Part shown: positions 1 to 17,313 of the stretch, piece by piece | Position numbering within the stretch: the stretch's first letter is position 1 | Layout: each line of letters starts with the position of its first letter | Sequence record: NZ_CP007673.1 | Source: a plasmid | Length of the DNA: 25,054 nt | Direction: 5' to 3' (one strand) | The notes under the pieces: generated by a model | Database searches by the model: none | The model's input: only the letters and a program-made list of their open reading frames with translations | Told to the model about the DNA's origin: nothing | Position numbers and translations under genes: made by a program

Positions 1-216
1 TCCTTAGATATTTTGATTGCTATGAGTGACTTATTTGGAATTACTATAGATCATTTAATTAAAGGAGATACATGTTTTAAAAAAGTTATTTTAGAGGGAA
101 ATTATAGAGAGAACAACCGGGTACCTTTCATAGTTGATTTTCTTTATGATTTTTGGTGGCTTTTCTTTCCTGTTGCCGTATTCTTAGTTTGGGCTATTCA
201 TTCGTCCTTGGATTGA
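1..216 (+). CDS. C-terminal part of an XRE-family HTH regulator with a C-terminal hydrophobic segment. It is 5'-truncated by the window start and probably continues the gene that starts at 24940.
   Basis: The open frame begins at position 1 with ...SLDILIAMSDLFGITIDHLIKGD, a typical XRE helix 4-5 region, followed by a hydrophobic tail (WWLFFPVAVFLVWAI). The stop is at 214-216. Confidence 0.5.
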   Translation, partial: SLDILIAMSDLFGITIDHLIKGDTCFKKVILEGNYRENNRVPFIVDFLYDFWWLFFPVAVFLVWAIHSSLD

Positions 217-344
217 TTTTGAAATTGAAATTTAAGGAATGTCAGTCATAATTAAAAAAGGAAAACATTTTTATGACACCTTGAAATGAATTGATAAGAA
301 TAGAAAAGTTTACAAAAGGCAATATGGAATATATACTAAAAGTA

Positions 345-406
345 ACAAGAATTTCGTTTGTAAACGCACCAAACCCCGAACTATTGGCCGTAGTTCGGGG
401 TTTTTT
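345..406 (+). ncRNA. Candidate antisense RNA (RNAII/SprA1AS-like) of type I toxin-antitoxin locus 1
   Basis: There is a promoter with -35 TTTACA at 309-314, a 17-nt spacer and -10 TATACT at 332-337. Positions 344-370 (aacaagaatttcgtttgtaaacgcacc) are a direct repeat of 509-535 and are therefore complementary in trans to the toxin start-codon region. A 10-bp-stem intrinsic terminator with a T-run lies at 374-406 and could serve both strands. Confidence 0.4.
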
Positions 407-430
407 GGTGAATTGACTTAGTCGTCTATG

Positions 431-526
431 CTATTTTTTATCGCGTTTATGGAGCCAATAACCAAATAACGTGACCAGACAACCACTAATTACTGTTGTC
501 ATGATGTGAACAAGAATTTCATTCAT
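431..526 (-). CDS. Fst/PepA1-family type I toxin, 31 aa (MNEILVHIMTTVISGCLVTLFGYWLHKRDKK). It is below the 60-aa cutoff of the ORF track.
   Basis: The RBS GAGGAGGTG lies 6 nt upstream of ATG on the minus strand. The product is a single TM helix with a KR-rich C-terminus and resembles Fst/PepA1 (VISGC...YWL). An extended -10 promoter (TGTTATAAT, minus strand) lies near 578-586, and the 5' UTR contains the palindrome GACGTCAAcTTGACGTC. Confidence 0.6.
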   Translation of the reverse strand: MNEILVHIMTTVISGCLVTLFGYWLHKRDKK

Positions 527-874
527 AAATCGCACCTCCTCTCTACGTCAAGTTGACGTCTGAGAGATAGACGACTCTAACATTATAACAAATCTCTCCT
601 TCCATAAAATAACATGAAAGCCAAAAAGTATTTTTATGTACTAAAGACAAAAAACTACAAAAGATGGGATAAATGATGTTTGGCAATCAAAGATAAGAAG
701 CTACAAAATATGTTATCAAAGAAGGCTATCAAGATATTCATTTTCTCAATTTTGGATTGGCGAAAAGAAATCATAACTGAATAAAGATACAAAATAGTTG
801 TTGATGAAAAAATAATGAAAACACGTCATTTAGGGAAATGTATAAAAGATGCATACCCGATATCGTTGATAAAA

Positions 875-912
875 AGCTCGAAACACCGTTAAATCAGTGT
901 TTCGGGCTTTTT
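875..912. terminator. Bidirectional intrinsic terminator
   Basis: A 12-bp stem (agctcgaaacac / gtgtttcgggct, one mismatch) has an A-run upstream and a T-run downstream. Confidence 0.5.
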
Positions 913-918
913 ATGTGG

Positions 919-1014
919 TTAACATAATGTTTCAATATCAGATATTGGATACCTAACTTTTTTTATATATAAATCTTGGTTACATTTTGGACATTTCAGT
1001 GGACCTGTTTTCAT
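919..1014 (-). CDS. Small CxxC (zinc-ribbon-like) protein, 31 aa (MKTGPLKCPKCNQDLYIKKVRYPISDIETLC)
   Basis: The strong RBS AAAGGAGGAG lies just upstream of ATG on the minus strand, and the terminator at 875-912 follows immediately. The ORF is below the track cutoff. Confidence 0.3.
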   Translation of the reverse strand: MKTGPLKCPKCNQDLYIKKVRYPISDIETLC

Positions 1015-1070
1015 AATACTCCTCCTTTTATTAGTTTACATAATCGATGATTACCAGAAGTTCTCACTAT

Positions 1071-1106
1071 ATAAAAGGCACTAAAAGTTTATAACTTTTA
1101 GTGCCT
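1071..1106 (-). terminator. Intrinsic terminator downstream of par
   Basis: A 14-bp perfect stem (aggcactaaaagtt / aacttttagtgcct) with loop tata is followed by a T-run on the minus strand. Confidence 0.6.
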
Positions 1107-1117
1107 AATTAATTATT

Positions 1118-1888
1118 TTAGCTACCAAACAAACGACTCCAAAACCCCTTTTTAGGTGTTTCTACTTCCCTGTCCTCAGGTCCACTCTCTATTTCTTCAG
1201 ATAGTTTATCATCTCTCTTTAATACGTCTTCGTTTGCACTGTCATCCTTTTTCGCTTTAGTTATGCCCTTATGATTTAATTCTGCTTCTATTGGTTGTAT
1301 TTTCTTTTGTTGTTGGTTACTATTTTGATATTCTTCAGTAAAAGTTGCTTCTTGCGGATTAATGCTTTGTCTATCATTAGTCGCTGTATCAAAAGAGTAA
1401 TTAAGCTGTCTTTCTTCTTCTAATTGGTTTTCTAGTTTTTGAATCTTTTTATTACTTTCTAAAGCTAATATTTGTTGATTCTCCAACAGTTTATTTAATG
1501 TATTAACATTGCTATTTTGTTGATCTAGTTGTTTAGTTAAATTCTCAATATATTTTTCATCATTTTTAGCTCTAGTTTCAAAGATTTCTATTTGCTTTTC
1601 TAATTCATTTACTTTTGTTTTTAATGACTCAAAACCATTTGAATTATTGTATATATGCTTTTCAAACTCTGCAGTATTTTCATTAAATCTTTCTTTTTTT
1701 ATTGATTCTTTATTTTGCATTGTCCTTTCTTTCTTAGTGATCTTTTCTATAATTTTTAAACAATCATTATCATTAATATAATTAATTCCATTTTCTTTTT
1801 TAAAAGATATATTTAAGTTTTTAGCATTATTAACAATAGTTTGTTTAGTTACATTCAATTCATCAGCAACCATTTTAATAGTTTTCAT
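1118..1888 (-). CDS. par: pSK1 Par-like plasmid partition protein (DUF536) with an N-terminal HTH and a central coiled coil
   Basis: The N-terminus MKTIKMVADELNVTKQTIVNNAKNL is an HTH, followed by a long heptad, charged coiled-coil region and a disordered acidic C-terminus. It is divergent from the RepA_N rep, as in pSK1-family plasmids. The start was chosen at the ATG at 1888 with RBS AAGGA (the track ORF extends to 1933). Confidence 0.7.
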   Translation of the reverse strand: MKTIKMVADELNVTKQTIVNNAKNLNISFKKENGINYINDNDCLKIIEKITKKERTMQNKESIKKERFNENTAEFEKHIYNNSNGFESLKTKVNELEKQIEIFETRAKNDEKYIENLTKQLDQQNSNVNTLNKLLENQQILALESNKKIQKLENQLEEERQLNYSFDTATNDRQSINPQEATFTEEYQNSNQQQKKIQPIEAELNHKGITKAKKDDSANEDVLKRDDKLSEEIESGPEDREVETPKKGFWSRLFGS

Positions 1889-1899
1889 AACATTCATCC

Positions 1900-2051
1900 T
1901 TAGGTACATAAATTGGTACCTAAATTTTACCACCTAACAAATATTTTTTCATCTTTCGACATCTAAATTTACTACCTATTTCACTACTTTAGTACCTAAT
2001 TAGTCACTTATAGAAGGTTTTAACGGCTAATTAGGTACTAAAGTAGTGAAT
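1900..2051. promoter_or_regulatory. Candidate par centromere/operator: degenerate TAC(C/T)ACCTA(A/T) and GGTACCTAA repeats plus a 22-bp inverted repeat
   Basis: The repeats ggtacataaa, ggtacctaaa, taccacctaa, tactacctat and gtacctaatt lie between par and rep. A perfect inverted repeat cactactttagtacctaattag (1982-2003) / ctaattaggtactaaagtagtg (2028-2049) lies immediately upstream of par. Confidence 0.45.
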
Positions 2052-2139
2052 TTTTATCATTTTAAAGTTACAATGTTCTTTCAACTAAACTTAAAAAGCT
2101 TTATATACAATCTTAAAAGTGTTAATATTACTTTGTGAA

Positions 2140-2223
2140 TATTAAAAGAGTCGATACTATTGGCGTAGCATCGACTCTCGGTAATAAAACGATTCGCATT
2201 CGTCTGTTTATATAATTTTTTGA
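2140..2223 (-). ncRNA. Candidate antisense RNAI controlling rep (countertranscript to the rep leader)
   Basis: The minus-strand promoter has -35 TTGCAC (complement of 2254-2259), a 17-nt spacer and -10 TATAAT (complement of 2231-2236). A hairpin at 2148-2180 (gagtcgat...atcgactc) is followed by a T-run on the minus strand. The RNA would lie 110-190 nt upstream of the rep start codon, as in pSK41-family RNAI. Confidence 0.4.
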
Positions 2224-2331
2224 TACTTGTATTATATATATCTAATCATATAAGTGCAAGTACAAAACATATAACCTACGTAAAAATTGTTTTATTACCT
2301 CTATCCAAAAAGTGGAAATGAGGTTTTTATT

Positions 2332-3276
2332 ATGCCCAATTTTGAGAAATACAATTTATCACAAGTAAAAACTGAAAGATTTTACCAACTTCCTAAATAT
2401 TTGTTCGAAGATGCATATTTTAAGAAAATGTCAGCAGAAGCCAAAATTATGTATGCATTATTAAAAGATCGTTTCGAATTATCCATCCAAAATGAATGGG
2501 TAGATAGAAATAATAACATTTACTTTATTTTCAGTAATAAACATTTGTGCGAGTACTTAGGTTATGGAGAACAAAAAATCATAAAATTGAAAAAAGAGTT
2601 AGTAAATTTTAATTTATTAACTCAAGAGCGTGTTGGCCTTAATAAACCAAATAGATTATATTTATTAAAACCAAATTATGATATTGAAGCAAGTCTTACC
2701 AAGGAACTTCCAAATTCACAGTTCCAGAACAATGAATTTGGAAGTTCTAGAACTGTGAATTTAAGTGGTCAAGAACTTCCAAATTCACAGTCTAATGATA
2801 CTGAGTTAAATAATACTAATTATATAGAAAATGAGGATAATGATACGTATGATATGAATGATATTATATCTAATACTTTAATAAATAATAATCATCATTC
2901 GAATCATACAAATCATCAAAAAACTGAATTTAATAATGACGCCCTTAAGTTCCAAGTACTCGAAGAATTGCCACAACAACTTCAAGACTATTTAAGTAAA
3001 TTTGAAATTAGAGAAATTCGGATTATTAAAAGCGTATTACTCAAAGGGAAAAAGTCATTTAATACTTCACATGATACTTATTATCGTTTAGAAGATGTTG
3101 AGTTTGAAATTGTAAGTGTATTGAAACGTTTTAAAGCGATGTTGCTACAAAAGAATGAAACCGTTGAAGCTATGCAAGGTTATTTAATGCAATCCATTAA
3201 AGCTGAACTTGAAGAAACACATGCCCTTTATATGCGCCGTAAAAACATGAAACAATATAATATCTTTAATCAATAA
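2332..3276 (+). CDS. rep: RepA_N-family theta replication initiator
   Basis: The protein starts MPNFEKYNLSQVKTERFYQLPKYLFED...KMSAEAKIMYALLKDRFELS, the typical RepA_N N-terminal domain of staphylococcal multiresistance plasmids. RBS GAGG precedes the ATG at 2332. The central region is low-complexity and repeat-containing. Confidence 0.85.
   Translation: MPNFEKYNLSQVKTERFYQLPKYLFEDAYFKKMSAEAKIMYALLKDRFELSIQNEWVDRNNNIYFIFSNKHLCEYLGYGEQKIIKLKKELVNFNLLTQERVGLNKPNRLYLLKPNYDIEASLTKELPNSQFQNNEFGSSRTVNLSGQELPNSQSNDTELNNTNYIENEDNDTYDMNDIISNTLINNNHHSNHTNHQKTEFNNDALKFQVLEELPQQLQDYLSKFEIREIRIIKSVLLKGKKSFNTSHDTYYRLEDVEFEIVSVLKRFKAMLLQKNETVEAMQGYLMQSIKAELEETHALYMRRKNMKQYNIFNQ
2704..2790. repeat. Iteron-like repeats inside rep (probable oriV)
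   Basis: gaacttccaaattcacag occurs as a direct repeat at 2704-2721 and 2773-2790. Inverted copies gaatttggaagttc and ctgtgaattt lie between them. RepA_N plasmids carry their origin within the rep coding sequence. Confidence 0.45.
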
Positions 3277-3296
3277 TTCAAATGATTTTATAACAA

Positions 3297-3594
3297 TCAA
3301 AGAGACATCAAAATATTCCGTTAAATCATCTGACTTTTTAACTGATGACGACGAAAAAAATCAAGAAATTTTAAGTGATCTAGAAAAGGTTTGTATCGAA
3401 AACGTATGTTAAGTTATGGTGGATTACTTAAAGAAAAGCATAAAATTTTAAACTTAGACGATGCCGAAGATGGTAATTTGATTAATACAAGTGATGAAGA
3501 TAAAACGACAGACGAAGAAGAAAAAGCACATTCGATTACAGCAATTTGGAATTTCGAAAAGCAAAATTATTATTTAAAAAATTTAAAGAGTTAA
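3297..3594 (+). pseudogene. C-terminal fragment (about 100 aa) of a Rep_1 (pC194/pUB110-family RC) replication gene, with a frameshift
   Basis: The segment is near-identical to the C-terminus of the Rep at 9927-10815 (ETSKYSVKSSDFLTD..., then RKRMLSYGGLLKEKHKILNLDDAEDGNLINTSDEDKTTDEE). One A is missing in the aaaaagg run relative to the other copy. It abuts the stop of the RepA_N rep. Confidence 0.7.
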
Positions 3595-3598
3595 AAAT

Positions 3599-3745
3599 AT
3601 GAACACTAAAATTTTAACTGGAATGACTGGAAGTTCTTTAGAACGAAAAATCAATAATTTTATTAATGATAACCAAATCGAAGTCATTGATATTAAGTTT
3701 TCAAGTTCTGTATTTTATTTTGGGGTAATGATTATTTATAAATAA
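3599..3745 (+). CDS. Hypothetical small protein, 48 aa (MNTKILTGMTGSSLERKINNFINDNQIEVIDIKFSSSVFYFGVMIIYK)
   Basis: The ORF lies in an insertion of about 150 bp that is absent from the homologous inverted arm near 9900-9930. The insertion is flanked by short aaagagtt repeats. Confidence 0.25.
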   Translation: MNTKILTGMTGSSLERKINNFINDNQIEVIDIKFSSSVFYFGVMIIYK

Positions 3746-3794
3746 TTAAAGAGTTTAAGACATTAGTGATGACTGATGTCTTTTTTTACTGTTT

Positions 3795-3862
3795 TTTTAT
3801 AAAAAAGTACTGTCTTATTTTTTGTGACAAATGCAATATATTGTGTCACAAAAGTGTGACAC
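3795..3862. repeat. Cluster of TGTGACA(C) palindromic repeats (an RC-plasmid origin-associated element). An inverted copy lies at 9790-9885.
   Basis: ttgtgacaaatgcaatatattgtgtcacaaaagtgtgacac is mirrored by gtgtcacacttttgtgacacaatatattgcgcttgtcacagttttgtgacac on the other arm. Confidence 0.4.
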
Positions 3863-4324
3863 TTAAGCTTTTTATGACCCCACATAAAAATATTGTTGAA
3901 GCTTTGAATTGTCTGGCTTTGCCAGATACCCCATGTATACATGGGGTCAAATTTCCCTTATGCTCTTACGGAGTTACGGAGTTCTTAGAGAAAAAATAAA
4001 AATTCTCGATTTTGATAAAAAATGTCTTGCAGGAATTTAGAAAAACATGGGGGAAGTTTTAAAGGATTTTATGCTAACTTTTAATTTGCATGTAAATGGG
4101 CAGTGTTTAAAAAATAGTCATTGGTTTTATTTAAAATTTTGTTTTTGAAAATAGCATATATGTATTTGGCTCATATTTGCGTTTTAAGAGATTATGTAGG
4201 TTTTAGATAGAAAAACATATGATTTACCCCTAAATCTTTAAAATACCCCCTTAAAATTCAAAATAAAGGTATTTATAATTTGAGTAAGTCTTGTGATAAA
4301 GTTTTTTAAAAAGGAGTTTTTATT

Positions 4325-4513
4325 TTGAATAAAGACACAGTGTTAGATAAAGGTTACGTTATAGCAACTATTTTAAATGTTTTCTTTTTACTTGGATTAA
4401 TTTTTATATCTCATTTGGAAAATTTATATATATTAATTCCGTATGTTATTTTGATGGGAATAAATGCTATTTATTTGGTTGTTAAATTTATGAATTTCAA
4501 AAAGAATAATTAG
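4325..4513 (+). CDS. Hypothetical small membrane protein, 62 aa
   Basis: RBS AAAGGAG precedes the start. The product has two predicted TM helices. The ORF has no counterpart in the other arm. Confidence 0.35.
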   Translation: MNKDTVLDKGYVIATILNVFFLLGLIFISHLENLYILIPYVILMGINAIYLVVKFMNFKKNN

Positions 4514-4689
4514 AATATTTGAGGGGATTTTGAAACGAGTTTCTTCTTGTTTTCACACTATTTTTTATTCCTATTGGTGTTGTTGCTTACTTTTTGTTTT
4601 TCTATGAAGATGATGATTTTGACGAGATGGAAGAAAAATATGATTATCATGAAGATAAAAAAATAGACGACGCATTTATGCCGAGAAAA

Positions 4690-4830
4690 TTTATTGATGT
4701 TGAGAAGAACCCTTAACTAAACTTGAAGACGAATGTCGGCATAGCGTGAGTTATTAAGCCGACCATTCGACAAGTTTTGGGATTGTTAAGGGTTCCGAGG
4801 CTCAACGTCAATAAAGCAATTGGAATAAAG
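4690..4830. other. ssoA-like single-strand origin palindrome of an RC plasmid remnant
   Basis: The long imperfect palindrome ttgacgttgag...ctcaacgtcaa spans about 120 nt. The conserved CS-6-like TAGCGT lies at its centre (ggcatagcgtgag). An inverted copy lies at 8990-9120. Confidence 0.45.
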
Positions 4831-4895
4831 CACCTATGATTATTTAAAAATATAAGTTATAATACATTCAAAAACATTTTTGAATGAGGTGTATT

Positions 4896-5513
4896 ATGAT
4901 TCAAACGGTTGTTGCTGCTGCTGTTCTTTATATTGCTACAGCAGTTGATTTATTAGTAATTTTATTAATATTTTTTGCTAGAGCAAAGACTAGAAAAGAA
5001 TATAGAGATATTTATGTTGGTCAATATTTAGGGTCTATTATTTTAATATTAGTTAGTTTGTTTTTAGCTTTTGTATTAAATTATGTTCCAGAAAAGTGGA
5101 TATTAGGTTTATTGGGTTTAATACCAATTTATCTTGGAATTAAAGTGGCTATTTATGATGATTGTGAAGGAGAAAAGAGAGCTAAAAAAGAATTGAATGA
5201 AAAAGGATTGTCTAAATTAGTTGGTACGGTTGCAATTGTTACGATAGCAAGTTGTGGCGCCGATAATATTGGTTTATTTGTTCCGTATTTTGTGACATTA
5301 AGTGTTACTAATTTATTACTTACTCTGTTTGTCTTTTTAATTTTAATTTTCTTCTTGGTGTTTACTGCACAAAAATTAGCTAATATCCCAGGAATTGGAG
5401 AAATTGTTGAGAAATTTAGTCGTTGGATTATGGCTATCATTTATATAGCTTTAGGTTTATTTATTATTATTGAAAATGACACTATTCAAACAATTTTAGG
5501 ATTTATATTTTAA
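4896..5513 (+). CDS. cadD: Cadmium resistance transporter CadD
   Basis: The 205-aa polytopic membrane protein starts MIQTVVAAAVLYIATAVDLLVILLIFF and matches staphylococcal CadD. RBS GAGGTG precedes the ATG at 4896. Confidence 0.9.
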   Translation: MIQTVVAAAVLYIATAVDLLVILLIFFARAKTRKEYRDIYVGQYLGSIILILVSLFLAFVLNYVPEKWILGLLGLIPIYLGIKVAIYDDCEGEKRAKKELNEKGLSKLVGTVAIVTIASCGADNIGLFVPYFVTLSVTNLLLTLFVFLILIFFLVFTAQKLANIPGIGEIVEKFSRWIMAIIYIALGLFIIIENDTIQTILGFIF

Positions 5514-5531
5514 TTTAGGGTGTGATTTTAT

Positions 5532-5879
5532 ATGAGTTATGAAAATACTTGTGATGTGATCTGTGTACATGAGGATAAAGTTAACAATGCTTTAAGTTTT
5601 TTAGAAGATGATAAATCTAAGAAATTACTTAACATTTTAGAAAAAATTTGTGATGAGAAGAAATTGAAAATCATATTATCTTTGATTAAAGAAGATGAGT
5701 TGTGTGTTTGTGATATTTCTTTGATATTGAAAATGAGTGTTGCTTCAACTTCACATCATTTAAGGCTTTTATATAAAAATGAGGTACTTGATTTTTATAA
5801 AGATGGAAAGATGGCATATTATTTTATTAAAGACGATGAAATAAGAGAGTTTTTCTCTAAAAATCATGAGGGTTTTTGA
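5532..5879 (+). CDS. cadX: ArsR/SmtB-family metalloregulator CadX
   Basis: The protein is 115 aa with the metal-binding motifs CVCDIS and CDVICVHE and an HTH (SVASTSHHLRLL). It lies immediately downstream of cadD. Confidence 0.85.
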   Translation: MSYENTCDVICVHEDKVNNALSFLEDDKSKKLLNILEKICDEKKLKIILSLIKEDELCVCDISLILKMSVASTSHHLRLLYKNEVLDFYKDGKMAYYFIKDDEIREFFSKNHEGF

Positions 5880-5884
5880 AACGA

Positions 5885-5915
5885 GTGAAACGAGTTTCTT
5901 CTTGTCTTGATACTA
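5885..5915 (+). other. pC194-family double-strand origin (dso) nick region
   Basis: gaaacgagtttcttcttgtcttgatactata contains the conserved CTTGATA nick motif about 150 bp upstream of the rep N-terminal fragment at 6070. Confidence 0.55.
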
Positions 5916-6069
5916 TATAGAAATAACTCGATTTTATATATACAGCTGTAACTGTTGATATTACAGCGTTTAAACGTGTTTTTGTGCGTGAAAGGAAAAT
6001 TTGACAATAAAAAACCCCAGTTATATTATTAAGGTGTCGAATCTTAAATAATACTGGGGGTCTTTTTAT

Positions 6070-6170
6070 ATGCAATACAATACTACTAGATATATAGACG
6101 AAAATCAAGATAATAAAACATTAAAAGATATGATGAAAAATGGGAAACAGCGCCCATGGAGAGAAAAGAA
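6070..6170 (+). pseudogene. N-terminal 33 codons of a Rep_1 RC replication gene, truncated by IS257
   Basis: MQYNTTRYIDENQDNKTLKDMMKNGKQRPWREKK runs into the IS257 inverted repeat. Its homolog on the other arm (8438-8544) continues in frame into the Rep body at 10807 (..KKIDNL|SYADILEIL..), and it aligns with the pUB110 Rep N-terminus (..GKKRDWRGKKRRANL..). Confidence 0.6.
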
Positions 6171-6952
6171 GGTTCTGTTGCAAAGTTAGAAATATAGTAT
6201 AATAGTCAACAAAAATGAGGTGCAGAGGATGAATTATTTCAGATATAAGCAATTTGACAAAGATGTCATTACTGTAGCCGTTGGCTACTATCTAAGATAT
6301 GCATTAAGTTATCGTGATATATCTGAAATATTGAGAGAACGAGGCATCTATGTTCATCATTCAACAATTTATCGATGGGTACAGGAATATGCTCCTATTT
6401 TGTATCAAATTTGGAAGAAAAAGAATAAGCAAGCTTATTATAAATGACATATAGACGAGACGTATATCAAAATTAAAGGGCAATGGCATTATTTATATCG
6501 CGCTATTGATGCAGATGGCCATACACTAGATATTTCGTTACGTAAGAAACGAGATAATCACTCAGCATATACGTTTATTAAACAATTTGGCAAACCTCAA
6601 ATGATAATTATAGACCAAGCTCCTTCAACGAAGGTGGCAATGTCCAAAGTGATTAAAGATTTTAAACTTACCCCCAACTGTCATTGTACCTCTAAATATT
6701 TAAATAATCTCATTGAACAAGATCATCGTCATATCAAAGTAAGGAAAATAAGTTATCAAAGTATCAATACGGCAAAGAATACGATCAAAGGCATTGAATG
6801 TATTTATGGACTATATAAAAAGAACCGCAGATCTCTTCAGATCTACGGGTTTTCGCCATGCCGTGTAATTAGCATCATGCTAGCTAGTTAATACGAAGTA
6901 TTATTTTAAACATAAGGTTAGACACTTATTTTTTTAACTTTGCAACAGAACC
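6171..6952 (+). mobile_element. IS257/IS431 copy 1 with a defective transposase
   Basis: Terminal IRs GGTTCTGTTGCAAAGTT lie at 6171 and (inverted) at 6936-6952. The transposase (6229-6891) has a TGG to TGA nonsense codon at 6445-6447 (W76*) and a 12-bp in-frame deletion removing RLIK, relative to copy 3. Confidence 0.85.
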
Positions 6953-7091
6953 GCAAAATGTCTATTATTAATTGTAAAGATATCTCATTATGTCTTTGCT
7001 AAAGTTTAAATAAATATAATTTTACATAGTGATACTCTACTCAAGACTATATATTAGGATGTCAGGATATTTTTAATTCCTCTAATCTTTA

Positions 7092-7463
7092 TTGGGTATA
7101 ATTAAAGGAAATATAAAGACTGGGGGAATAAAAGAGTTACACGCTAAAAGGTTGGTTAGTTTGTTGAAATCTAATAAAAAATATTATCTTTATATAGGAT
7201 TTCAAGAATGTCCGTATTGCCGAGATTTTTCTGAAACATTAAGAGAATTTAGTAGTAATGCCAATCTCCCTATTTATTATTTTAATTTAAACAGTGGAAA
7301 CTCTAAACTAAATGAATCAGATAAAAAGTTCATAGAAAAGGTATTGAACGAAAGTGTAAATTTAAGAGGAACTCCTACATTTTTAAAGATTGAAAAGAAA
7401 AAAATAATTGCTAAATTTGAAGGTTCTCAGACAACAATTAGAGATTTAAATGATATTAATTAA
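7092..7463 (+). CDS. Thioredoxin-like protein with a CPYC motif (bacteriocin-accessory/thiol-disulfide type). The N-terminus may be truncated by IS257.
   Basis: FQECPYCRDF is a CxxC active site within a thioredoxin-fold-like context. No clear signal peptide or start context is present, and the IS257 right end is only about 140 bp upstream. Confidence 0.5.
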   Translation: MGIIKGNIKTGGIKELHAKRLVSLLKSNKKYYLYIGFQECPYCRDFSETLREFSSNANLPIYYFNLNSGNSKLNESDKKFIEKVLNESVNLRGTPTFLKIEKKKIIAKFEGSQTTIRDLNDIN

Positions 7464-7475
7464 AGTATATAAGGT

Positions 7476-7635
7476 GTGAAAACTATGTATAAAAATTTTG
7501 ACTTATTTTTAGGTATTGTATCATTACTATCTGCAATAATCATTTATATTATTGATTCAGATAGTAAAGGGATAGCTCTCGTAGTTTTAATAATGGGGAT
7601 AGTATTTATTTTGACTAGTATGATACGAAAAAAAG
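7476..7635 (+). CDS. Small 2-TM membrane protein, with its C-terminus fused into the IS257 terminal repeat
   Basis: RBS AAGGTG precedes the start. The ORF MKTMYKNFDLFLGIVSLLSAIIIYII... runs into the IS257 IR at 7636, and its stop lies inside the IS. Confidence 0.3.
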
Positions 7636-8429
7636 GGTTCTGTTGCAAAGTTAAAAAATAAGTGTCTAACCTTATGTTTAAAATAATACTTCGTATTAAC
7701 TAGCTAGCATGATGCTAATTACACGGCATGGCGAAAACCCGTAGATCTGAAGAGATCTGCGGTTCTTTTTATATAGTCCATAAATACATTCAATGCCTTT
7801 GATCGTATTCTTTGCCGTATTGATACTTTGATAACTTATTTTCCTTACTTTGATATGACGATGATCTTGTTCAATGAGATTATTTAAATATTTAGAGGTA
7901 CAATGACAGTTGGGGGTAAGTTTAAAATCTTTAATCACTTTGGACATTGCCACCTTCGTTGAAGGAGCTTGGTCTATAATTATCATTTGAGGTTTGCCAA
8001 ATTGTTTAATAAGACGTTTAATAAACGTATATGCTGAGTGATTATCTCGTTTCTTACGTAACGAAATATCTAGTGTATGGCCATCTGCATCAATAGCGCG
8101 ATATAAATAATTCCATTGCCCTTTAATTTTGATATACGTCTCATCTATATGCCATTTATAATAAGCTTGCTTATTCTTTTTCTTCCAAATTTGATACAAA
8201 ATAGGAGCATATTCCTGTACCTATCGATAAATTGTTGAATGATGAACATAGATGCCTCGTTCTCTCAATATTTCAGATATATCACGATAACTTAATGCAT
8301 ATCTTAGATAGTAGCCAACGGCTACAGTAATGACATCTTTGTCAAATTGCTTATATCTGAAATAATTCATCCTCTGCACCTCATTTTTTGTTGACTATTA
8401 TACTATATTTCTAACTTTGCAACAGAACC
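7636..8429 (-). mobile_element. IS257/IS431 copy 2 (inverted) with a defective transposase
   Basis: IRs lie at 7636-7652 and 8413-8429. The transposase frame (7696-8370, minus) carries TGG to TAG (tcgatAggtacagg versus tcgatGggtacagg in copy 3). The flank TTAAATTA at 8430-8437 matches the flank of copy 3. Confidence 0.85.
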
Positions 8430-8437
8430 TTAAATTA

Positions 8438-8544
8438 TCTATTTTCTTTTCTCTCCACGGACGTTGTTTCCCACTTTTTGTAACATCTTTGAGTGTTTCG
8501 TTATCTTGATTTCCGTCTATATATTTTGTATGATTGTCTTGCAT
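8438..8544 (-). pseudogene. N-terminal 36 codons of the Rep_1 gene, separated from its body by circular permutation and IS257
   Basis: RBS GGAGG precedes MQDNHTKYIDGNQDNETLKDVTKSGKQRPWREKKIDNL. Joining 8438 to 10807 across the 8-bp repeat TTAAATTA restores the reading frame into ..SYADILEIL.. of the Rep body. Confidence 0.6.
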
Positions 8545-8699
8545 ATAAAAAGACCTCCAGTAGTTGTTTATTGAGTAGACGCTTTAATCATACTACTGGT
8601 GTTTTTTTATGTCAAAAATTCCTTTCAACACAAAAAATAGCCGAAAACCCTTATATATCAAAGTCTACGGCCATAAATTAAAAATCGAGTTATTTCTAT

Positions 8700-8745
8700 A
8701 TAGTATCAAGACAAGAAGAAACTCGTTTTCAACTCGTTTCCAAAA
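8700..8745 (-). other. pC194-family dso nick region (inverted copy)
   Basis: The reverse complement reads gaaacgagttgaaaacgagtttcttcttgtcttgatactata, lying upstream of the rep N-terminus on the minus strand. Confidence 0.5.
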
Positions 8746-8747
8746 AC

Positions 8748-8930
8748 CTATTCCTCAATCCTATTTTTTTGAAAATAATAAGTAAGCAACATACCTGAAA
8801 TAGCAGCTGCTACACCTCCGATAAACCTAGCAACCCAAATATTGATAGGCATACTCTCAAAAATCATTAATATAAAATTTCCAACAAAAGCAGATATACA
8901 GATTATCAAAAAAACTTTTAAACCAGTCAT
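8748..8930 (-). CDS. Hypothetical small membrane protein, 60 aa (MTGLKVFLIICISAFVG...)
   Basis: RBS AAAGGAG precedes the ATG at 8930 (the track ORF starts further upstream). The product has two TM helices. It occupies the position taken by cadDX on the other arm. Confidence 0.35.
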   Translation of the reverse strand: MTGLKVFLIICISAFVGNFILMIFESMPINIWVARFIGGVAAAISGMLLTYYFQKNRIEE

Positions 8931-8989
8931 AAAAACACTCCTTTTTATTAACACTAACTAAAAATATTGCTTTATTCCAATTGCTTTAT

Positions 8990-9120
8990 TGACGTTGAGC
9001 CTCGGAACCCTTAACAATCCCAAAACTTGTCGAATGGTCGGCTTAATAGCTCACGCTATGCCGACATTCGTCTACAAGTTTAGTTAAGGGTTCTTCTCAA
9101 CGTCAATAAATTTTCTCGGC
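8990..9120. other. ssoA-like palindrome (inverted copy of 4690-4830)
   Basis: The same long palindrome is present, with a TAGCGT-containing centre (gctcacgctatgcc). Confidence 0.45.
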
Positions 9121-9926
9121 ATAAATGCATGTTTGATTATGCGTGTAACTATACCTTAAATAAAGCATTAATTGTGCACTGATTTACTAATTATTATCCC
9201 TTACTTTCATTCACACTATAATCAACACCTTAATTCTAAACATCTGAAGTAATCATAATTTTTAAACCTAATAAAATTCGTGACTATCTTAGTTAAACTC
9301 TGTTTAATTAAGATTTTTTATTTTTCGTTATCCAAGAGGCGCATTTACATACTTAAAAATGCGTCGAGCTAAAACCAAAATTTACATGTAATAATCGAAT
9401 ATACTTATTTTGCATTTTAAGGGGGTATTTAGAACGAACTTTAAAAATATATAGTTTTATAACTGTATTATCTTATTTGTTTCTTAAAACGCAAATATGA
9501 GCCAAATAAATATATTCTGATTTTATAATCAAAAATTCGATCAAACCCAGTGTCGATTTTTCGGACACTGCCCATTTACATGCAAATTAAAAATTAGCAT
9601 AAAATCCTTTAAAACTTCCCCCATGTTTTTCTAAATTCCTGCAGGGCGCTTTTTATCAAAAATCGAGAATTTTAAATTTTCTCTAAGAACTCCGTAAGAG
9701 CATAAGGAGAATTTGCTATCATTCAAAAATGATAGGTCTGGCAAAGCCAGACATTCCAAGGGTTTTAAGTAATTTTAAAGTGATATCATAAAAAGCTGTA
9801 GTGTCACACTTTTGTGACACAATATATTGCGCTTGTCACAGTTTTGTGACACTACATACAGCATTTGTCACAAAAATAAGACAGTACTTTTTTACAAAAA
9901 ATCAATAAAAAAGACATCAGTCATCA

Positions 9927-10815
9927 CTAATGTCTTAAATAATAATTTTGTTTTTCAAAATTCCAAATTGCCGTAATTGAATGTGCTTTTGCTTCTTCAT
10001 CTGTTGTTTTATCTTCATCACTTGTATTAATTAAATTACCATCTTCAGCATCGTCTAAGTTTAAAATTTTATGCTTTTGTTTAAGCAGTCCACCATAACT
10101 TAACATACGTTTTCGATATAAACCTTTTTCTAAATCACTTACAATTTCTTGATTTTTTTCGTCATTGTCAGTTAAAAAATCAGATGACTTAACCGAATAT
10201 TTTGATGTCTCTTTGATTGCCGATTCAATATCTTTATCGCCTTTTTGATTAGGTTTAATTGCTTTAATATTTGCAACAGGTCGATAATCAACTTGTAATG
10301 CTTTTTGCCATAAATAGACCCATTCTTCTTGAGTTATATAATTAGATTTATTTTTAAAATAACTATTTTCAACACATAATAAAACATGCATATGTTGATT
10401 ATAACTACCGTCATTTTTATTAACGGTAACTTCTGTCGAACGCAAAAATCCAACAAGATTTTGTTTAACTTTTTTATATCTACTTAACCTATCAAATGCT
10501 TTCGTTAAGTGTTTCAAACTTTGTTCTAAAGTATCTCCATCTATCGCATTTCGTGTTGAAAGTGTTAAGAATAACCAACGTGCTTTAGGCTTTTCTTTGA
10601 TAACTTCTTTAATAACTTTTTCAGCTTGATAACTATTTTTCATAGCACGCCTCCAATTACAAACTGGACATAATTTTGATTTACAAAACCATGTCTTATG
10701 TAATTTCAAATAACCTTCATCAGTCGGCTTGAACTCTAAGACGTTACCACACTGTTTTACGTTATAAGCCTTTTTAATTTTTAAAATTTCTAGTATATCT
10801 GCATAACTTAAATTA
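9927..10815 (-). pseudogene. rep: Rep_1 (pC194/pUB110-family) RC replication initiator body, with the 5' end cut off by IS257
   Basis: HFCK.RLCP.C.WRR-like FCKSKLCPVCNWRR and the HMHVLL metal motif are present, and the sequence aligns with pUB110 Rep. The open frame continues upstream of the track ORF to the IS257 junction at 10815 (..NLSYADILEILKIKKAYNVKQCGNVLEFKPTDEGYLKLHKTW..). Confidence 0.8.
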
Positions 10816-11609
10816 GGTTCTGTTGCAAAGTTAGAAATATAGTATAATAGTCAACAAAAAATGAGGTGCAGAGGATGAATTATTTCAGATATAAGCAATT
10901 TGACAAAGATGTCATTACTGTAGCCGTTGGCTACTATCTAAGATATGCATTAAGTTATCGTGATATATCTGAAATATTGAGAGAACGAGGCATCTATGTT
11001 CATCATTCAACAATTTATCGATGGGTACAGGAATATGCTCCTATTTTGTATCAAATTTGGAAGAAAAAGAATAAGCAAGCTTATTATAAATGGCATATAG
11101 ATGAGACGTATATCAAAATTAAAGGGCAATGGAATTATTTATATCGCGCTATTGATGCAGATGGCCATACACTAGATATTTCGTTACGTAAGAAACGAGA
11201 TAATCACTCAGCATATACGTTTATTAAACGTCTTATTAAACAATTTGGCAAACCTCAAATGATAATTACAGACCAAGCCCCTTCAACGAAGGTGGCAATG
11301 TCCAAAGTGATTAAAGATTTTAAACTTACCCCCAACTGTCATTGTAACTCTAAATATTTAAATAATCTCATTGAACAAGATCATCGTCATATCAAAGTAA
11401 GGAAAATAAGTTATCAAAGTATCAATACGGCAAAGAATACGATCAAAGGCATTGAATGTATTTATGGACTATATAAAAAGAACCGCAGATCTCTTCAGAT
11501 CTACGGGTTTTCGCCATGCCGTGTAATTAGCATCATGCTAGCTAGTTAATACGAAGTATTATTTTAAACATAAGGTTAGACACTTATTTTTTAACTTTGC
11601 AACAGAACC
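10816..11609 (+). mobile_element. IS257/IS431 copy 3 with an intact 224-aa transposase (CDS 10875-11549)
   Basis: IRs GGTTCTGTTGCAAAGTT lie at 10816 and (inverted) at 11593-11609. The transposase MNYFRYKQFDKDV... to ...IMLAS is uninterrupted. The left flank at 10808-10815 is TTAAATTA. Confidence 0.9.
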
Positions 11610-11713
11610 AAGAAATCGATCCCACTGAATACCTTTACCAAATTTATTATATTTGGAATCAGAAAGAGTACCTGGCAAGTGAACTTCACGAACTTACCGA
11701 AGAAGAACAATAA
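11610..11713 (+). pseudogene. C-terminal remnant of an unidentified gene abutting the IS257 right end (..EIDPTEYLYQIYYIWNQKEYLASELHELTEEEQ*)
   Basis: The open frame begins at the IS boundary and ends at TAA 11711-11713. It has no start codon of its own. Confidence 0.35.
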
Positions 11714-11731
11714 AAAAATATAAAAATATTT

Positions 11732-11779
11732 TGAGAGTTGACCACCCACATTTGTAGTTTACGGAGAACGCGGGTGGTC
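11732..11779. terminator. Perfect 17-bp-stem hairpin (ttgagagttgaccaccc / gggtggtcaactctcaa)
   Basis: The hairpin has a loop of about 14 nt and is followed by an A/T-rich run. It may terminate the truncated upstream gene. Confidence 0.4.
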
Positions 11780-12636
11780 AACTCTCAAAATTTATTTCTT
11801 AAAAATTTATTTGTTGTTCTGATGAGCGATGAACGACTAAAAAAGTATAATGCTATTTTCTATCATTACACTTTTTTTATACGCTTATTATACTTTCGTT
11901 ATACTCTTTTTGTCGCTACACGAACTATGTGATCAAACGGCACGTTTGCCCATTTAAAATGCAAATTCGGAACGATTTATTGCTAATTTTTAAATTTGCA
12001 TGTAAATGGGCAGTACGTAAAAATCGCCCGTCCTGGTGTCGAAAAAACGAACAGAAAAAATAAAATTAAAATATAGTAATCTTTTTATTTTTTACAGGTA
12101 GGTTTCCCCATAATTTAGTACTGCATCAGAAATTTATCTGTACTTAGAAATGACGACGTATTTTTTCTATACGTTTATGACATTTATTCTACATTGATCC
12201 AAATCATAAAAATGTGTTTAAAATGTCCTAAAAAGGTTTTAAAAGGACGATTTTTTTATATTACGTATTTTTGTACTCAAAATTAGAGAATGCTCTAAAT
12301 GACCTCTTAAAACGCAAAAAAAATATATATCAAAAAGACATGTATTTTTAAAAAAATTGATGTGTATGATGCATGTCTTTTGTGTATGTTTTATATACAT
12401 AAAGTATATGTATACGTAACCTGTATGTATACATAACGTTATGGTTTTTATACATATGAGTTAAAAAAGTGATGTCACTTTTTTTCTAGGAAAAATAACT
12501 CGGCACTGCCGAGTTCACCACGTTATGGGTCTGCCAAAATATAAAAGTGGTGGCACTTTCCCTTATGCTCATGACTTTATGTATAAAAGTTAGAGGTACT
12601 TTTATGCCGAGAAAACTTTTTGAGAGATTATTTTTT

Positions 12637-13125
12637 TTATTTTTTACTTTTATTTTCTTCAAATATTTTGTAAATCTCTTTATGAGTAAATAAAAGATAG
12701 AAGCATAAAGAATAAATGAAAATTTGAAAATATAAGTTTATATGAATGTTGTAGAAAATCTTCAAAATTATTAAGTTTAATACGATCATATTAGCAGTTA
12801 TAAAGAATATGAATAAGATAATATTATTAAATTTCTTTTTGTATTTTATATGTAAAAATATTATAAAAAGTTCAAGAAAAATAAATATTAGATAAGTTAC
12901 TATAAAGAATAATGCAATATAGCCAATGTTATAAAACATATTATTTGAATACCAATTTATTGTTATTAAAGAACTTATATTTAAATTATCTGCTAATGAT
13001 TGGAAACCTATTATGCTAAAAAATGGTATTGAGAATACTAATACGGATATAGGTATGATTATTATTCCGAGTAAGAACGTTACAATTATAAAGTTCAATA
13101 AGTACTCTTTGTTTACTTTTTTCAT
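12637..13125 (-). CDS. Hypothetical polytopic membrane protein (162 aa, about 5 TM, very Phe/Ile-rich)
   Basis: The long ORF is divergent from the secreted-protein gene. It has no recognisable catalytic motifs. A hairpin pair at 12466-12520 lies downstream on the minus strand. Confidence 0.55.
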   Translation of the reverse strand: MKKVNKEYLLNFIIVTFLLGIIIIPISVLVFSIPFFSIIGFQSLADNLNISSLITINWYSNNMFYNIGYIALFFIVTYLIFIFLELFIIFLHIKYKKKFNNIILFIFFITANMIVLNLIILKIFYNIHINLYFQIFIYSLCFYLLFTHKEIYKIFEENKSKK

Positions 13126-13186
13126 AATGAATTTAATTCCTTTTATGTATATAATATTTAATAATAAAAAATTTTAACATTTATAA

Positions 13187-13813
13187 TTGGAGGATAAAAG
13201 TCATATAAAGAATTTAAAAAGTTTTTTTATTAAAAATACTTTGGTACTAACATCTACTGCATTATTATTTTCTAGTTTTGAACCTGTAGTTCATGCTGCA
13301 GAAAATAAGGAAGTTGTTAAAACAGTAGAAAATGATAATGTAGAATTCAATGAATTGTTAGAAGGACAAGAATATATTTGGGAAGTTTTATCTAGAGATG
13401 ATGAAGGATTTAAAATGTTTCTAGATGAGCAAAGAGCTTTTAATCCTAATTTTGATAATGATGTTTTACTAGCAAAACAAGAAGGTGCTTTAAATTCTTC
13501 AGTATTTGCTAATAATTCTATGACTTTAAACTCAAATAAGCCTACTCCTAGAGGTCCTATCGGTGCAACTTTAAAAGCTATTAAGGCTCTATCACCTTCT
13601 TTGAGACATGGTGGAACTGCTATATCTTGGATCATTAAACCATTAAGTAGAAAACATGCTGTTCTAGTAAAAAAATATTCAAGAAAGATGTCTAATGCAA
13701 TTGATAGGTTAGATAAGTCTACGAAATCAGCTGTTGAAAATGCTTTTGTTAAAGCAGGTATACCAAGAAGTGATGCGAAAACTTTAACTTATATTGTATT
13801 TTTAGTTATTTAG
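13187..13813 (+). CDS. Hypothetical secreted protein (signal peptide ..TALLFSSFEPVVHA|AENKE, mature about 175 aa). The start codon is uncertain.
   Basis: RBS GGAGGA lies at 13189-13194, but the only in-frame codon at proper spacing is ATA (13205). The track start is TTG at 13187 with no RBS. A strong terminator follows. Confidence 0.5.
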   Translation: MEDKSHIKNLKSFFIKNTLVLTSTALLFSSFEPVVHAAENKEVVKTVENDNVEFNELLEGQEYIWEVLSRDDEGFKMFLDEQRAFNPNFDNDVLLAKQEGALNSSVFANNSMTLNSNKPTPRGPIGATLKAIKALSPSLRHGGTAISWIIKPLSRKHAVLVKKYSRKMSNAIDRLDKSTKSAVENAFVKAGIPRSDAKTLTYIVFLVI

Positions 13814-13825
13814 ATATTGAGCTGA

Positions 13826-13866
13826 CTTGCCCTAAGATTTTATAAAATCTTAGGGCAAGTTTTTTC
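13826..13866 (+). terminator. Intrinsic terminator
   Basis: cttgccctaagatttt / aaaatcttagggcaag is a 16-bp stem followed by TTTTTTC. Confidence 0.8.
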
Positions 13867-14119
13867 TTTTTTCTTATCTTGATAAAGTAGTATTTTCAAT
13901 TTGTGATTGGGGTGATGATTTTCTAGATACAGTTAAAATTAATAATCATAGATAATGAGAGAACCTACAATTATCATAAGTTTTCACCTAAAAAGGATAT
14001 ATTAAAGTTTTACAAATCTTTAATGCACCTTTTAGAGTGTTTTTAAATCTATTCTTTAATAGACTATAATATTCACTATTTATTACACCGTTTTTTCTTT
14101 AGATTAATGAATTTAGGTG

Positions 14120-14160
14120 ATGATTTTGAACTGCGTTTCTTCTTTTGTCTTGATACTATA
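14120..14160 (+). other. Third pC194-type dso-like sequence, with an intact CTTGATA motif
   Basis: ggtgatgattttgaactgcgtttcttcttttgtcttgatactataaaaaacg resembles 5870-5915. Confidence 0.45.
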
Positions 14161-14287
14161 AAAAACGAAGTTATATAACATAAGACGACTTATCGGAAGT
14201 AGATATGCTTGTATATTCACAGATGGTATAATAATAGAGTCGCCTATCTCTCAGGCGTCAATTGACGAAGAGAGGAGGTGCATTACT

Positions 14288-14380
14288 TTGCTAATCATTT
14301 TCGTTCACATCATAGCACCAGTCATCAGTGGCTGTGCTGTTGCGTATTATACTTATTGGCTTAGTAAACGCAACAAATAA
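14288..14380 (+). CDS. PepA1/SprA1-like (Fst-family) type I toxin, 30 aa (MLIIFVHIIAPVISGCAVAYYTYWLSKRNK)
   Basis: RBS GGAGGTG lies 7 nt upstream of the TTG start. The peptide is nearly identical in pattern to S. aureus PepA1 (..FVHIIAPVISGC...YWLS.RN.K). An extended -10 promoter TGgTATAAT lies at 14224-14232. The ORF is below the track cutoff. Confidence 0.6.
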   Translation: MLIIFVHIIAPVISGCAVAYYTYWLSKRNK

Positions 14381-14407
14381 TTAATAGGCGACTTTATAAG
14401 CCAGCAT

Positions 14408-14473
14408 CGAAAAAATCCCCACACTACTGCAATAGTGTGGGGATTGGTGCATTAATTGTTAATCATTTTCGTT
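14408..14473 (-). ncRNA. Candidate antisense RNA (SprA1AS-like) of TA locus 2
   Basis: The minus-strand promoter has -35 TTGCAT (complement of 14504-14509) and an extended -10 TGTTATAAT (complement of 14480-14488). Its 5' region is the complement of 14458-14473, which is a direct repeat of 14291-14304 (taatcattttcgtt) and so is complementary to the toxin start region in trans. A 13-bp-stem terminator lies at 14414-14445, with a T-run on the minus strand. Confidence 0.4.
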
Positions 14474-14561
14474 ATATAAATTATAACACTGGTTAGTAGA
14501 GAAATGCAAAAACTACTGTTTGCGACAGAAAACTATGGAGGGTTACTGTGGTTGTTGAGCT

Positions 14562-15731: not shown

Positions 15732-15831
15732 ACTCAATAACTCCTTTTGCTGCTTGTTAATATAACGTTAAATCTAAGACGTCAAAAAGTCAATTATTTT
15801 TTAGCAGCGTTTTATAAATAGCGAAATATAA

Positions 15832-15895
15832 ATAAATAATGCTATAAAAATACAAGCAGCTAATTTAAGCTGCTTGTATTTTTATAGCATTATTT
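15832..15895. promoter_or_regulatory. Perfect 29-bp-arm palindrome about 100 bp upstream of the DUF262 gene
   Basis: ataaataatgctataaaaatacaagcagc - taatttaa - gctgcttgtatttttatagcattatttat. Confidence 0.45.
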
Positions 15896-16091: not shown

Positions 16092-16142
16092 TGTCACTTT
16101 GCTTGATATATGAGAATTATTTAACCTTATAAATGAGAAAAA

Positions 16143-16392: not shown

Positions 16393-17313
<921 letters not shown>

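Follow-up and report, generated by a model that had tools for sequence, protein, structure and literature searches.

Small rolling-circle plasmids are reportedly found inside larger staphylococcal replicons as cointegrates flanked by the insertion sequence (IS) IS257, for example, pUB110 in pSK41 and SCCmec or the small plasmids in the trimethoprim-resistance plasmids of Leelaporn et al. 1996. Mimics of the origin of transfer (oriT) of the pWBG749 family, which have been defined experimentally (O'Brien et al. 2015, NAR 43:7971, PMC4652767), lie just downstream of rep on small rolling-circle plasmids and adjoin rep fragments and cadDX on pMW2, pIB485, and pUSA300HOUMR. Here we analyze a stretch of 25,054 nucleotides from the plasmid record NZ_CP007673.1 (the window in the following), in which two rolling-circle plasmid remnants form a left and a right arm around a core that holds a thioredoxin-like gene (trx) between two IS257 copies, with a third copy closing the right arm (Table 1). 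That two different rolling-circle plasmids were trapped here by IS257 at or near one hot spot in rep is well supported, and the region as a whole is probably best explained as a recombination mosaic within a pMW2-like theta plasmid of Staphylococcus aureus. The structure class is already published and the sequence is already in GenBank; what is new are minor details, that is, the site preference and a target repeat between like ends of two IS copies.

An earlier note, made from the letters of this stretch, had described two circularly permuted remnants of rolling-circle plasmids, each broken in rep by IS257, and this description holds. Both arms carry Rep_1 sequence, lie in inverted orientation, and show the order that had been claimed, namely rep 3' part, TGTGACA repeats, a 21-nt motif, an ssoA-like palindrome (single-strand origin, sso), cargo, double-strand origin (dso), rep 5' part, and IS257. 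As inverted repeats the arms are 75-98% identical by segment (BLAST E-values down to 1e-113), with ssoA as the best conserved part (98% over a 161-nt segment, 4672-4832 vs 8968-9128) and the dso/rep 5' regions at 76-84%; on both arms ssoA forms a hairpin whose tip carries TAGCGT (z = -7.2 on the left, -9.9 on the right). In Rep_1 rolling-circle plasmids, the dso consensus with its CTTGATA nick motif lies upstream of rep. Here, each rep 5' piece is preceded by CTTGATA within TTTCTTCTTGTCTTGATACTATATAG (5906 on the plus strand, 8704 on the minus strand), and the 40-nt context is the same on the two arms. TGTGACA is found at nine sites against 2.0 expected, eight of the nine in two clusters, and the 21-nt motif AATTTGCATGTAAATGGGCAG has three exact copies in the window (4083 on the plus strand, 9568 on the minus strand, and 11993) where none would be expected. 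Neither arm is an autonomous replicon: the right-arm rep is in two pieces, the left-arm rep lacks about 600 bp, and intact circular relatives exist. Both arms are remnants and not functioning rolling-circle plasmids.

The third copy of AATTTGCATGTAAATGGGCAG (11993-12013) lies to the right of IS C, the rightmost IS257 copy, inside about 45 nt of arm-like sequence and beside an inverted partner; in pUSA300HOUMR-type plasmids, the equivalent motif is continuous with an inverted partial arm. Further dso-like sites are TTCTTATCTTGATA at 13878-13884 and TTTCTTCTTTTGTCTTGATACTATA at 14149-14155; like the third motif copy, they fall beyond the interval that the earlier note had described (3297-10815). 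This motif copy and the two dso-like sites look like older rolling-circle remnants in the backbone.

The right arm is complete as a permuted unit (2,378 bp), and its two inner junctions bear the same 8 bp, as had been claimed: TTAAATTA is present exactly at 8430-8437 and 10808-10815, each time abutting an IS end. Splicing 8544 to 8438 to one copy of the 8-mer and then to 10807 to 9927 gives 996 nt in frame that encode a 331-aa protein, so that the exact restoration of the Rep reading frame is likewise borne out, whereas the frame is broken with zero or two copies of the 8-mer. The spliced protein belongs to Pfam Rep_1 (8.8e-92), carries HMHVLL (HUH) at residue 177 and the active-site motif ETSKYSVK at residue 238, and agrees at 327 of 331 residues with Rep of the free plasmid NZ_CP150784.1 (2,294 bp). 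Moreover, the 339-nt spliced junction aligns end to end and in a single piece, at 98.8%, to five free plasmids of 2.3-7 kb in which rep is uninterrupted. In rep orientation both 8-mers read TAATTTAA, and the four free plasmids compared all have TAATGTAA at this site; because the two 8-mers share a variant that is missing from these relatives, they are true duplicates of one target from one plasmid lineage.

The alleles of this arm are not of one piece. The upstream dso/hairpin together with the first rep codons (8659-8540) is 98-100% identical per 60-nt window to NZ_CP150784, and the rep body from 10295 to 10774 reaches 95-100% (mostly 100%) by the same measure. Over the approximately 520 bp next to IS C (10295-10815), pF5, pTF3198, and pCM05 are just 88-95% identical to the window, and downstream of 10295 they are 97-100% identical, which marks a sharp allele boundary. 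The block 10295-10815 is a recombination tract whose limit coincides with the IS boundary. A search of PLSDB (72,556 plasmids) for a free circular parent of the right arm returned backbone relatives only, none of them with the 68-aa open reading frame (ORF) that forms its cargo.

On the left arm, the rep 3' fragment is joined without a gap to the 3' flank of the theta replicon's RepA_N gene, and the rep 5' piece breaks off 14 bp ahead of the IS boundary of the right arm, exactly the offset that the earlier note had given. The junction of this piece with IS A, the leftmost IS257 copy, is also found in pC200_1, pUSA500, and NC_010077. The cargo differs between the arms as well, with cadD and cadX on the left and a hydrophobic ORF of 60 or 68 aa on the right; cadDX is predicted to confer cadmium resistance by means of a CadD transporter and an ArsR/SmtB-type regulator. 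No small free cadDX plasmid that could be the parent of the left arm was found in PLSDB, from which pNewbould305 (named by O'Brien 2015) is apparently missing. Two small ORFs specific to the left arm, 3599-3745 (48 aa) and 4325-4513 (62 aa, hydrophobic), are conserved in many plasmids, where they are also annotated; the right arm has nothing that corresponds to them.

The TGTGACA repeats are, judged by their sequence, the AR repeats of pWBG749-family oriT mimics, a function that the earlier note had missed. As a mimic we counted the core CTTATGCTCTT preceded by the hairpins IR1-IR3 and the AR3 repeat within a minimal oriT of about 126 bp. The core occurs exactly twice in the window, at 3957-3967 (+) and 9696-9706 (-). 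On the left, 3844-3968 is identical at 125 of 125 positions to OT45 variant C (dataset S2, O'Brien 2015), and its IR1 and IR2 hairpins fold; on the right, 9695-9819 (-) agrees with OT49 variant B at 124/125 and with bases 5-125 of OT49 variant C at 121/121. It is in the IR2 hairpin, the determinant of helper specificity, that the two arms diverge. Mobilisation of such a mimic depends on a helper plasmid whose SmpO/SmpP match it; when cloned, OT49 oriTs were mobilised by the helper and the OT45 oriT only if smpO of pWBG745 was supplied; on plasmids with two oriTs the copies always lie on opposite strands, since with same-strand pairs the relaxase deletes the intervening DNA (O'Brien 2015, PMC4652767). 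By analogy with those experiments, the plasmid would possess two transfer origins of different specificity, one per strand, and could therefore be mobilised by either subtype of pWBG749-family conjugative plasmid with the relaxase provided in trans. Their placement on opposite strands may reflect the loss of same-strand pairs through relaxase-mediated deletion during transfer.

The window spans nearly an entire penicillinase/cadmium plasmid of the S. aureus pMW2 family with a RepA_N theta replicon (replication gene at 2287-3276, Pfam), blaZ-blaR1-blaI, a lactococcin-972-type bacteriocin operon, Fst toxin loci, and cadDX. Its positions 1-16265 are 99.96% identical to the S. aureus plasmid pVR-MSSA_03 (NZ_CP012596.1), and 3000-11700 are 100.0% identical; a 1.7-kb stretch in the bla region (16266-17974) is not present in the otherwise near-identical pVR-MSSA_03. 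The pMW2-like plasmid pC200_1 (CP127815.1, 20.4 kb) and the window are collinear, apart from 6953-10814 and one IS copy, which pC200_1 does not have. The left arm with a single IS257 is therefore the widespread state, and the trx segment, the middle copy IS B, and the right arm are additions, which with the extra IS copy amount to 4.65 kb on a 20.4-kb pMW2-type plasmid. In PLSDB, 280 records cover the left arm to at least 80%; the right arm is covered fully in 7 records and to at least 80% in 82. It is well supported that the left arm is an old and widespread module, common to the pMW2, pUSA300HOUMR, and pIB485 families, and equally that the right arm is a later, recent addition.

The central segment has a history of its own. 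In NC_010077.1, the trx DNA is flanked to its left and right by the rest of a class II bacteriocin locus, which follows immediately after the same left arm and IS; the segment is therefore a piece of this locus that IS257 cut out. Plasmid pUSA500 lacks the right arm but has the left arm followed by IS A, trx, and IS B, and a S. argenteus plasmid carries the trx segment in the opposite orientation between its copies A and B, which shows that the inverted IS copies have recombined with each other. Two PLSDB entries deposited as plasmids (CP127728.1 and CP127752.1, 680 bp each) consist solely of the trx segment between two inverted IS257 copies; almost certainly, they are assembly leftovers of a repeat-bounded invertible segment.

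The three IS257/ISSau6 copies (A, B, and C from left to right) measure 782-794 bp, as delimited by exact matches to the terminal repeats GGTTCTGTTGCAAAGTT. Their length of about 790 bp, the terminal inverted repeats, and the DDE transposase place them in IS257/IS431 of the IS6/IS26 family, in agreement with their annotation as ISSau6. They are mutually 97-99% identical. IS A equals the single IS of pC200_1 save for one extra T in a T-run, and IS B and IS C, in inverted orientation, are 99% complementary over 794 nt. IS B agrees with C at all markers that distinguish A from C at positions 1-417 (with its own TAG at 208 as the exception) and equals A at 454-770; thus, it is a hybrid.

The position of the junctions in rep recurs among relatives. 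In pMW2-type plasmids the junction lies 6 bp upstream of the 8-mer. The pCM05 and pUSA300HOUMR types have the left-type rep 5' piece with TAATGTAA at the right inverted repeat (IRR) of a 176-bp IS remnant and, in addition, TTACATTA at the left inverted repeat (IRL) of IS C, which is the signature of a textbook intramolecular event in trans; 257 PLSDB records cover at least 80% of a query of this junction type, and six metagenome contigs carry the junction. At exactly the same position, the metagenome contig OEFZ01000039.1 (9049-9156) has the rep 5' piece with TAATGTAA joined to a divergent IS257 isoform (end GGTTCTGTTGCAAAGTTAGAAAAACATCT...), and this insertion looks independent of the others at the site. 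The rep site is a demonstrated recurrent target of IS257.

Plasmids pF5 and pTF3198 as well as the S. argenteus plasmid share the architecture of the window, but their IS C junction is TTACATTA and the first approximately 520 bp of their rep body are 88-95% identical to the window, the remainder of the arm being 97-100% identical. At 10862-11967 of pF5, the left dso/rep 5' and IS A junction is converted to the right-arm type (rep 5' piece with TAATTTAA at IRL), and the inverted repeat of this plasmid extends through the IS into both arms. This offers evidence of gene conversion between the arms. About 75 PLSDB plasmids (e.g., NZ_CP082814.1), many of them from dogs, have kept the sequence from IS C over TTAAATTA into the right arm and lost the whole core. 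At 6180-6360 of NZ_CP082814.1, the right arm meets the reverse-complemented left arm head to head, and the join falls exactly on the small hairpin that precedes rep. What remains is a near-palindrome centered on one hairpin, from which IS A, IS B, and trx have disappeared along with the two rep 5' pieces. This type is a derived form: the DNA from one of the small hairpins before rep to the other was deleted. Taken together, these relatives show that recombination among the arms and IS copies of the region is frequent.

How the right arm was joined is less straightforward than its content. Its two 8-mers are in direct orientation and both sit at IRL ends, those of the inverted copies IS B and IS C. 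For the IS6/IS26 family, copy-in or conservative cointegration leads to direct IS repeats with the target repeat at one IRR and one IRL, and an intramolecular trans event leads to an inverted IS pair with inverted target copies, one at IRR and one at IRL (Varani 2021, PMC7986276). The window conforms to neither pattern; the latter is found in pCM05 and NZ_CP035792, at the same rep position. The earlier note had taken the 8-bp repeat for the target duplication of a single IS257 insertion, now at the inner junctions as expected for a cointegrate. Such an insertion or copy-in cointegrate would account for the repeat and for the exactly restored frame, and trapping of small plasmids by IS257 is known (Shearer 2011; Varani 2021, PMC7986276), but the orientation of IS B and IS C and the ends at which the repeats sit contradict it. 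Since homologous recombination between IS copies never alters which IS end is paired with which flank, the IRR junction of such a cointegrate would persist, and the arrangement cannot descend from one ordinary insertion; we consider this explanation very improbable. Two reconstructions on paper fared no better. One copy-in event followed by any homologous inversions or deletions between IS copies, or else one intramolecular event in cis or trans, in every case keeps an IRR-target junction or predicts 8-mers that are not seen; AAAAAAAG (7628-7635) and GCAAAATG (6953-6960), for example, do not match TTAAATTA. A formally possible route to the IRL/IRL pair would be the loss of the DNA that lies between 18-bp terminal repeats of two inverted IS copies.

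We infer that the IRL/IRL pair most likely arose from two ordinary IS257 events at the hot spot within one lineage, a view on which we would place about half of our confidence. The two hits could consist of a copy-in into a plasmid dimer that was followed by an intramolecular trans inversion or, alternatively, of two separate cointegrates that later recombined. The module of IS A, trx, and IS B would then have replaced the intervening DNA via crossovers in IS B and in the backbone or arms, and a crossover in IS B fits because this copy is a hybrid. On both arms, joining within the 5' end of rep would silence rolling-circle replication and retain the remainder of the small plasmid. Several points weigh against this course of events. 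It requires two hits on a single 8-bp site within one lineage, and a recombinational replacement on top. For the right arm, PLSDB yielded no intermediate that has the predicted partner junction at IRR: the junction of IRR with TAATTTAA and the rep body is not found there, the best match being the IRL junction itself, and the junction of the rep 5' piece and TAATTTAA with IRR has no exact form, the matches being the left-type TAATGTAA junction of pUSA300HOUMR-like plasmids. One metagenome scan gave no exact match to the right-arm IRR partner junction either, and a scan of genome contigs, which found neither the partner junctions nor its positive control, carries no weight. In pF5, pTF3198, and the S. 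argenteus plasmid, moreover, the 8-mers differ by one base, with the direction of change relative to the window being inferred. The alternative is a single unorthodox event, in which the IRL ends of two inverted IS257 copies were joined to both sides of one staggered cut in rep. The pair in question would be the IS-trx-IS unit, or the complementary plasmid arc bounded by IS B and IS C, acting as a true compound transposon. It is the only one-step route to two IRL junctions with identical, direct 8-mers and agrees with the private TAATTTAA variant in both of them, with the lack of either canonical partner junction among the PLSDB plasmids, and with a conserved IS A-trx-IS B interior whose outer IRL flanks vary among plasmids. 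However, the IS6/IS26 family is reported to form only cointegrates, and its functional compound structures are always direct repeats (Varani 2021, PMC7986276). The varying IRL flanks are explained more simply by an adjacent deletion in pUSA500 and gene conversion in pF5, the position of trx beside IS A in the native bacteriocin context argues that the module formed in place, and the demonstrated hot spot removes the main objection to two separate hits. All in all, the single event appears unlikely, if by no means far-fetched.

The question of whether the arms go back to two related plasmids or to one old duplication with a cargo swap, which the earlier note had left undecided, can be answered in favor of the former. 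A single integrated plasmid that was duplicated in inverted orientation and then diverged would explain the common element order and the 98%-identical ssoA, and the pCM05 type shows that intramolecular inversion by IS257 can turn part of an integrated unit. Yet the arms belong to two oriT subtypes whose IR2 hairpins are not alike, the identity of the dso/rep 5' regions (76-84%) is far below that of the IS copies (97-99%), each arm is closer to different free plasmids than to the other arm, and pMW2-type plasmids have the left arm alone; hence, a duplication is scarcely credible. The differences in oriT subtype (OT45 vs OT49), rep allele, and cargo, together with the mosaic nature of the free relatives, instead support a probable descent of the arms from two different Rep_1 plasmids. 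Finally, the 794-bp repeats might have been mis-joined in assembly, the true state being a pMW2-type plasmid and a separate small circle, given that short reads cannot orient segments between inverted IS copies and that the 680-bp plasmid records of the trx segment exist. The same connectivity was, however, seen on comparison of the independently deposited complete plasmids pVR-MSSA_03, pF5, pTF3198, and pMRSA-139-14-168, single-piece full-length matches also occur in LT009691, CP127742, and CP127540, and the junctions (IS end, 8-mer, and flank) are shorter than a read and independent of repeat resolution. The probability of an artefact is next to negligible.

Table 1. Features of the two rolling-circle arms, the IS257 copies, and the central segment (positions in the window).
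Feature	Position	Strand	Remarks
Left rep 3' fragment (Rep_1)	3294-3594	+	starts at IKETSKYSVK active-site motif; frameshifted; inverted match to 9929-10219, 90-93%
Left oriT mimic, OT45	3819-3968	+	AR repeats TGTGACA/TGTCACA, IR1 and IR2 hairpins, core CTTATGCTCTT 3957-3967
21-nt motif AATTTGCATGTAAATGGGCAG, left copy	4083-4103	+	exact match
Left ssoA-type single-strand origin	4672-4832	+	long imperfect hairpin, TAGCGT tip; -31.2 kcal/mol, z = -7.2
Left cargo, cadD and cadX	4884-5879 (cadD 4884-5513, cadX 5532-5879)	+	Pfam Cad 2.5e-75, HTH_5 1.3e-10; AMRFinder annotation in identical record
Left dso region	5885-6069	+	nick motif CTTGATA 5906-5912, then hairpin just upstream of rep ATG; hairpin z = -3.3
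Left rep 5' fragment, 33 codons	6070-6170	+	terminates at IRL of IS A
IS A	6171-6952	+	degenerate: 12-bp deletion, TGA stop; resident IS of pMW2-type plasmids
Class II bacteriocin locus fragment, 683 bp	6953-7635	+	bounded by IRR ends of IS A and IS B
PedC/BrcD thioredoxin-like gene (trx)	7092-7463	+	weak Pfam Thioredoxin_2 match; native context in NC_010077
Small membrane ORF	7476-7661	+	carried by central segment
IS B	7636-8429	-	own TAG stop
8-mer TTAAATTA	8430-8437		adjoins IRL of IS B; free plasmids: TAATGTAA at site
Right rep 5' fragment, codons 1-36	8438-8544	-	splice test
Right dso region	8545-8747	-	hairpin 8548-8610, nick motif CTTGATA 8704-8710
Right cargo	8748-8954	-	hydrophobic/membrane ORF, 68 aa from GTG start, annotated 60 aa
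Right ssoA	8968-9128	-	DNA fold -41.2 kcal/mol, z = -9.9
21-nt motif, right copy	9568-9588	-	exact match
Right oriT mimic, OT49	9695-9872	-	core 9696-9706; five TGTGACA/TGTCACA repeats 9802-9872
Right rep body, codons ~39-331 and stop	9927-10807	-	splice test, Rep_1
8-mer TTAAATTA	10808-10815		adjoins IRL of IS C
IS C	10816-11609	+	intact transposase (10866/10874-11549), Pfam DDE_Tnp_IS240 3.8e-37

Beyond the interval covered by Table 1, the plasmid has two Fst loci, with toxin ORFs near 14288-14380 and, according to the annotation of an identical record, near 433-528. An Rfam match to the fstAT antitoxin RNA at 14331-14431 (-; 88.5 bits) adjoins an annotated Fst-family type I toxin. It is the sole Rfam match of the whole window, and the interval studied has none.

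The locus provides an example of a common penicillinase/cadmium plasmid that gains a second, differently specific transfer origin by swallowing a small plasmid, which bears on the spread of non-conjugative resistance plasmids in S. aureus. For the mechanisms of the IS26 family, the reuse of one exact rep site and the target repeat between two left ends of inverted IS copies are of interest, as a like-ended target repeat is no direct product of the standard cointegrate models. One may go further and propose jointly that GATAAT(G/T)TAA, approximately 110 bp into rep, is a position-specific IS257 hot spot that makes oriT/cargo modules and that the right arm was joined by two IRL ends in one event. 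We regard this combined claim as rather doubtful. If it were true, the hot spot would be the place at which small rolling-circle plasmids are repeatedly fixed as oriT/cargo modules in large staphylococcal plasmids, and the two-IRL event would represent true compound-transposon behavior, which is thought to be absent from the IS26 family.

Compared with the systems described so far, the window shares with the pUB110-type IS257 cointegrates a small rolling-circle plasmid trapped in a large replicon and, at the inner junctions, 8 bp of plasmid sequence in duplicate; the IS257 copies on either side are direct repeats in those cointegrates but inverted in the window, where like ends point toward the insert. 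Rep remnants are not described in the text of Shearer 2011. Among free Rep_1 plasmids, NZ_CP150784.1, pC884_2 (3,516 bp), and p2010S01-051-2 (3,011 bp) have rep uninterrupted across both junction sites. Such plasmids share the dso, ssoA, and oriT backbone with the window at 91-100% identity but differ in cargo and have TAATGTAA at the target where the window has TAATTTAA; no single free plasmid in PLSDB matches either arm end to end. The pCM05 type (NC_013323.1, NZ_CP035792.1) has the same left arm, IS C-Y junction, and rep position as the window, together with an inverted partial second arm whose oriT region is about 91% identical to the OT49 arm of the window (subtype not assigned). Its 8-mers are inverted copies (TAATGTAA/TTACATTA) at one IRR and one IRL, the IS beside the rep 5' piece is cut to 176 bp, and, unlike the window, it has neither the trx module nor a complete second unit. 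The inserts of pMW2, pIB485, and pUSA300HOUMR, the pNewbould305-like insert in SAP047A, and pWBG762 (O'Brien 2015) likewise combine rep fragments, cadDX, and oriT mimics on large plasmids, and OT45 with OT49 is the commonest two-oriT pair, always on opposite strands as in the window (O'Brien 2015, PMC4652767). That study does not dissect the IS257 junctions, which in the window show 8-bp repeats at two IRL ends, and, unlike the cadDX inserts described there, the right arm of the window lacks cadDX and carries a small membrane ORF as cargo.

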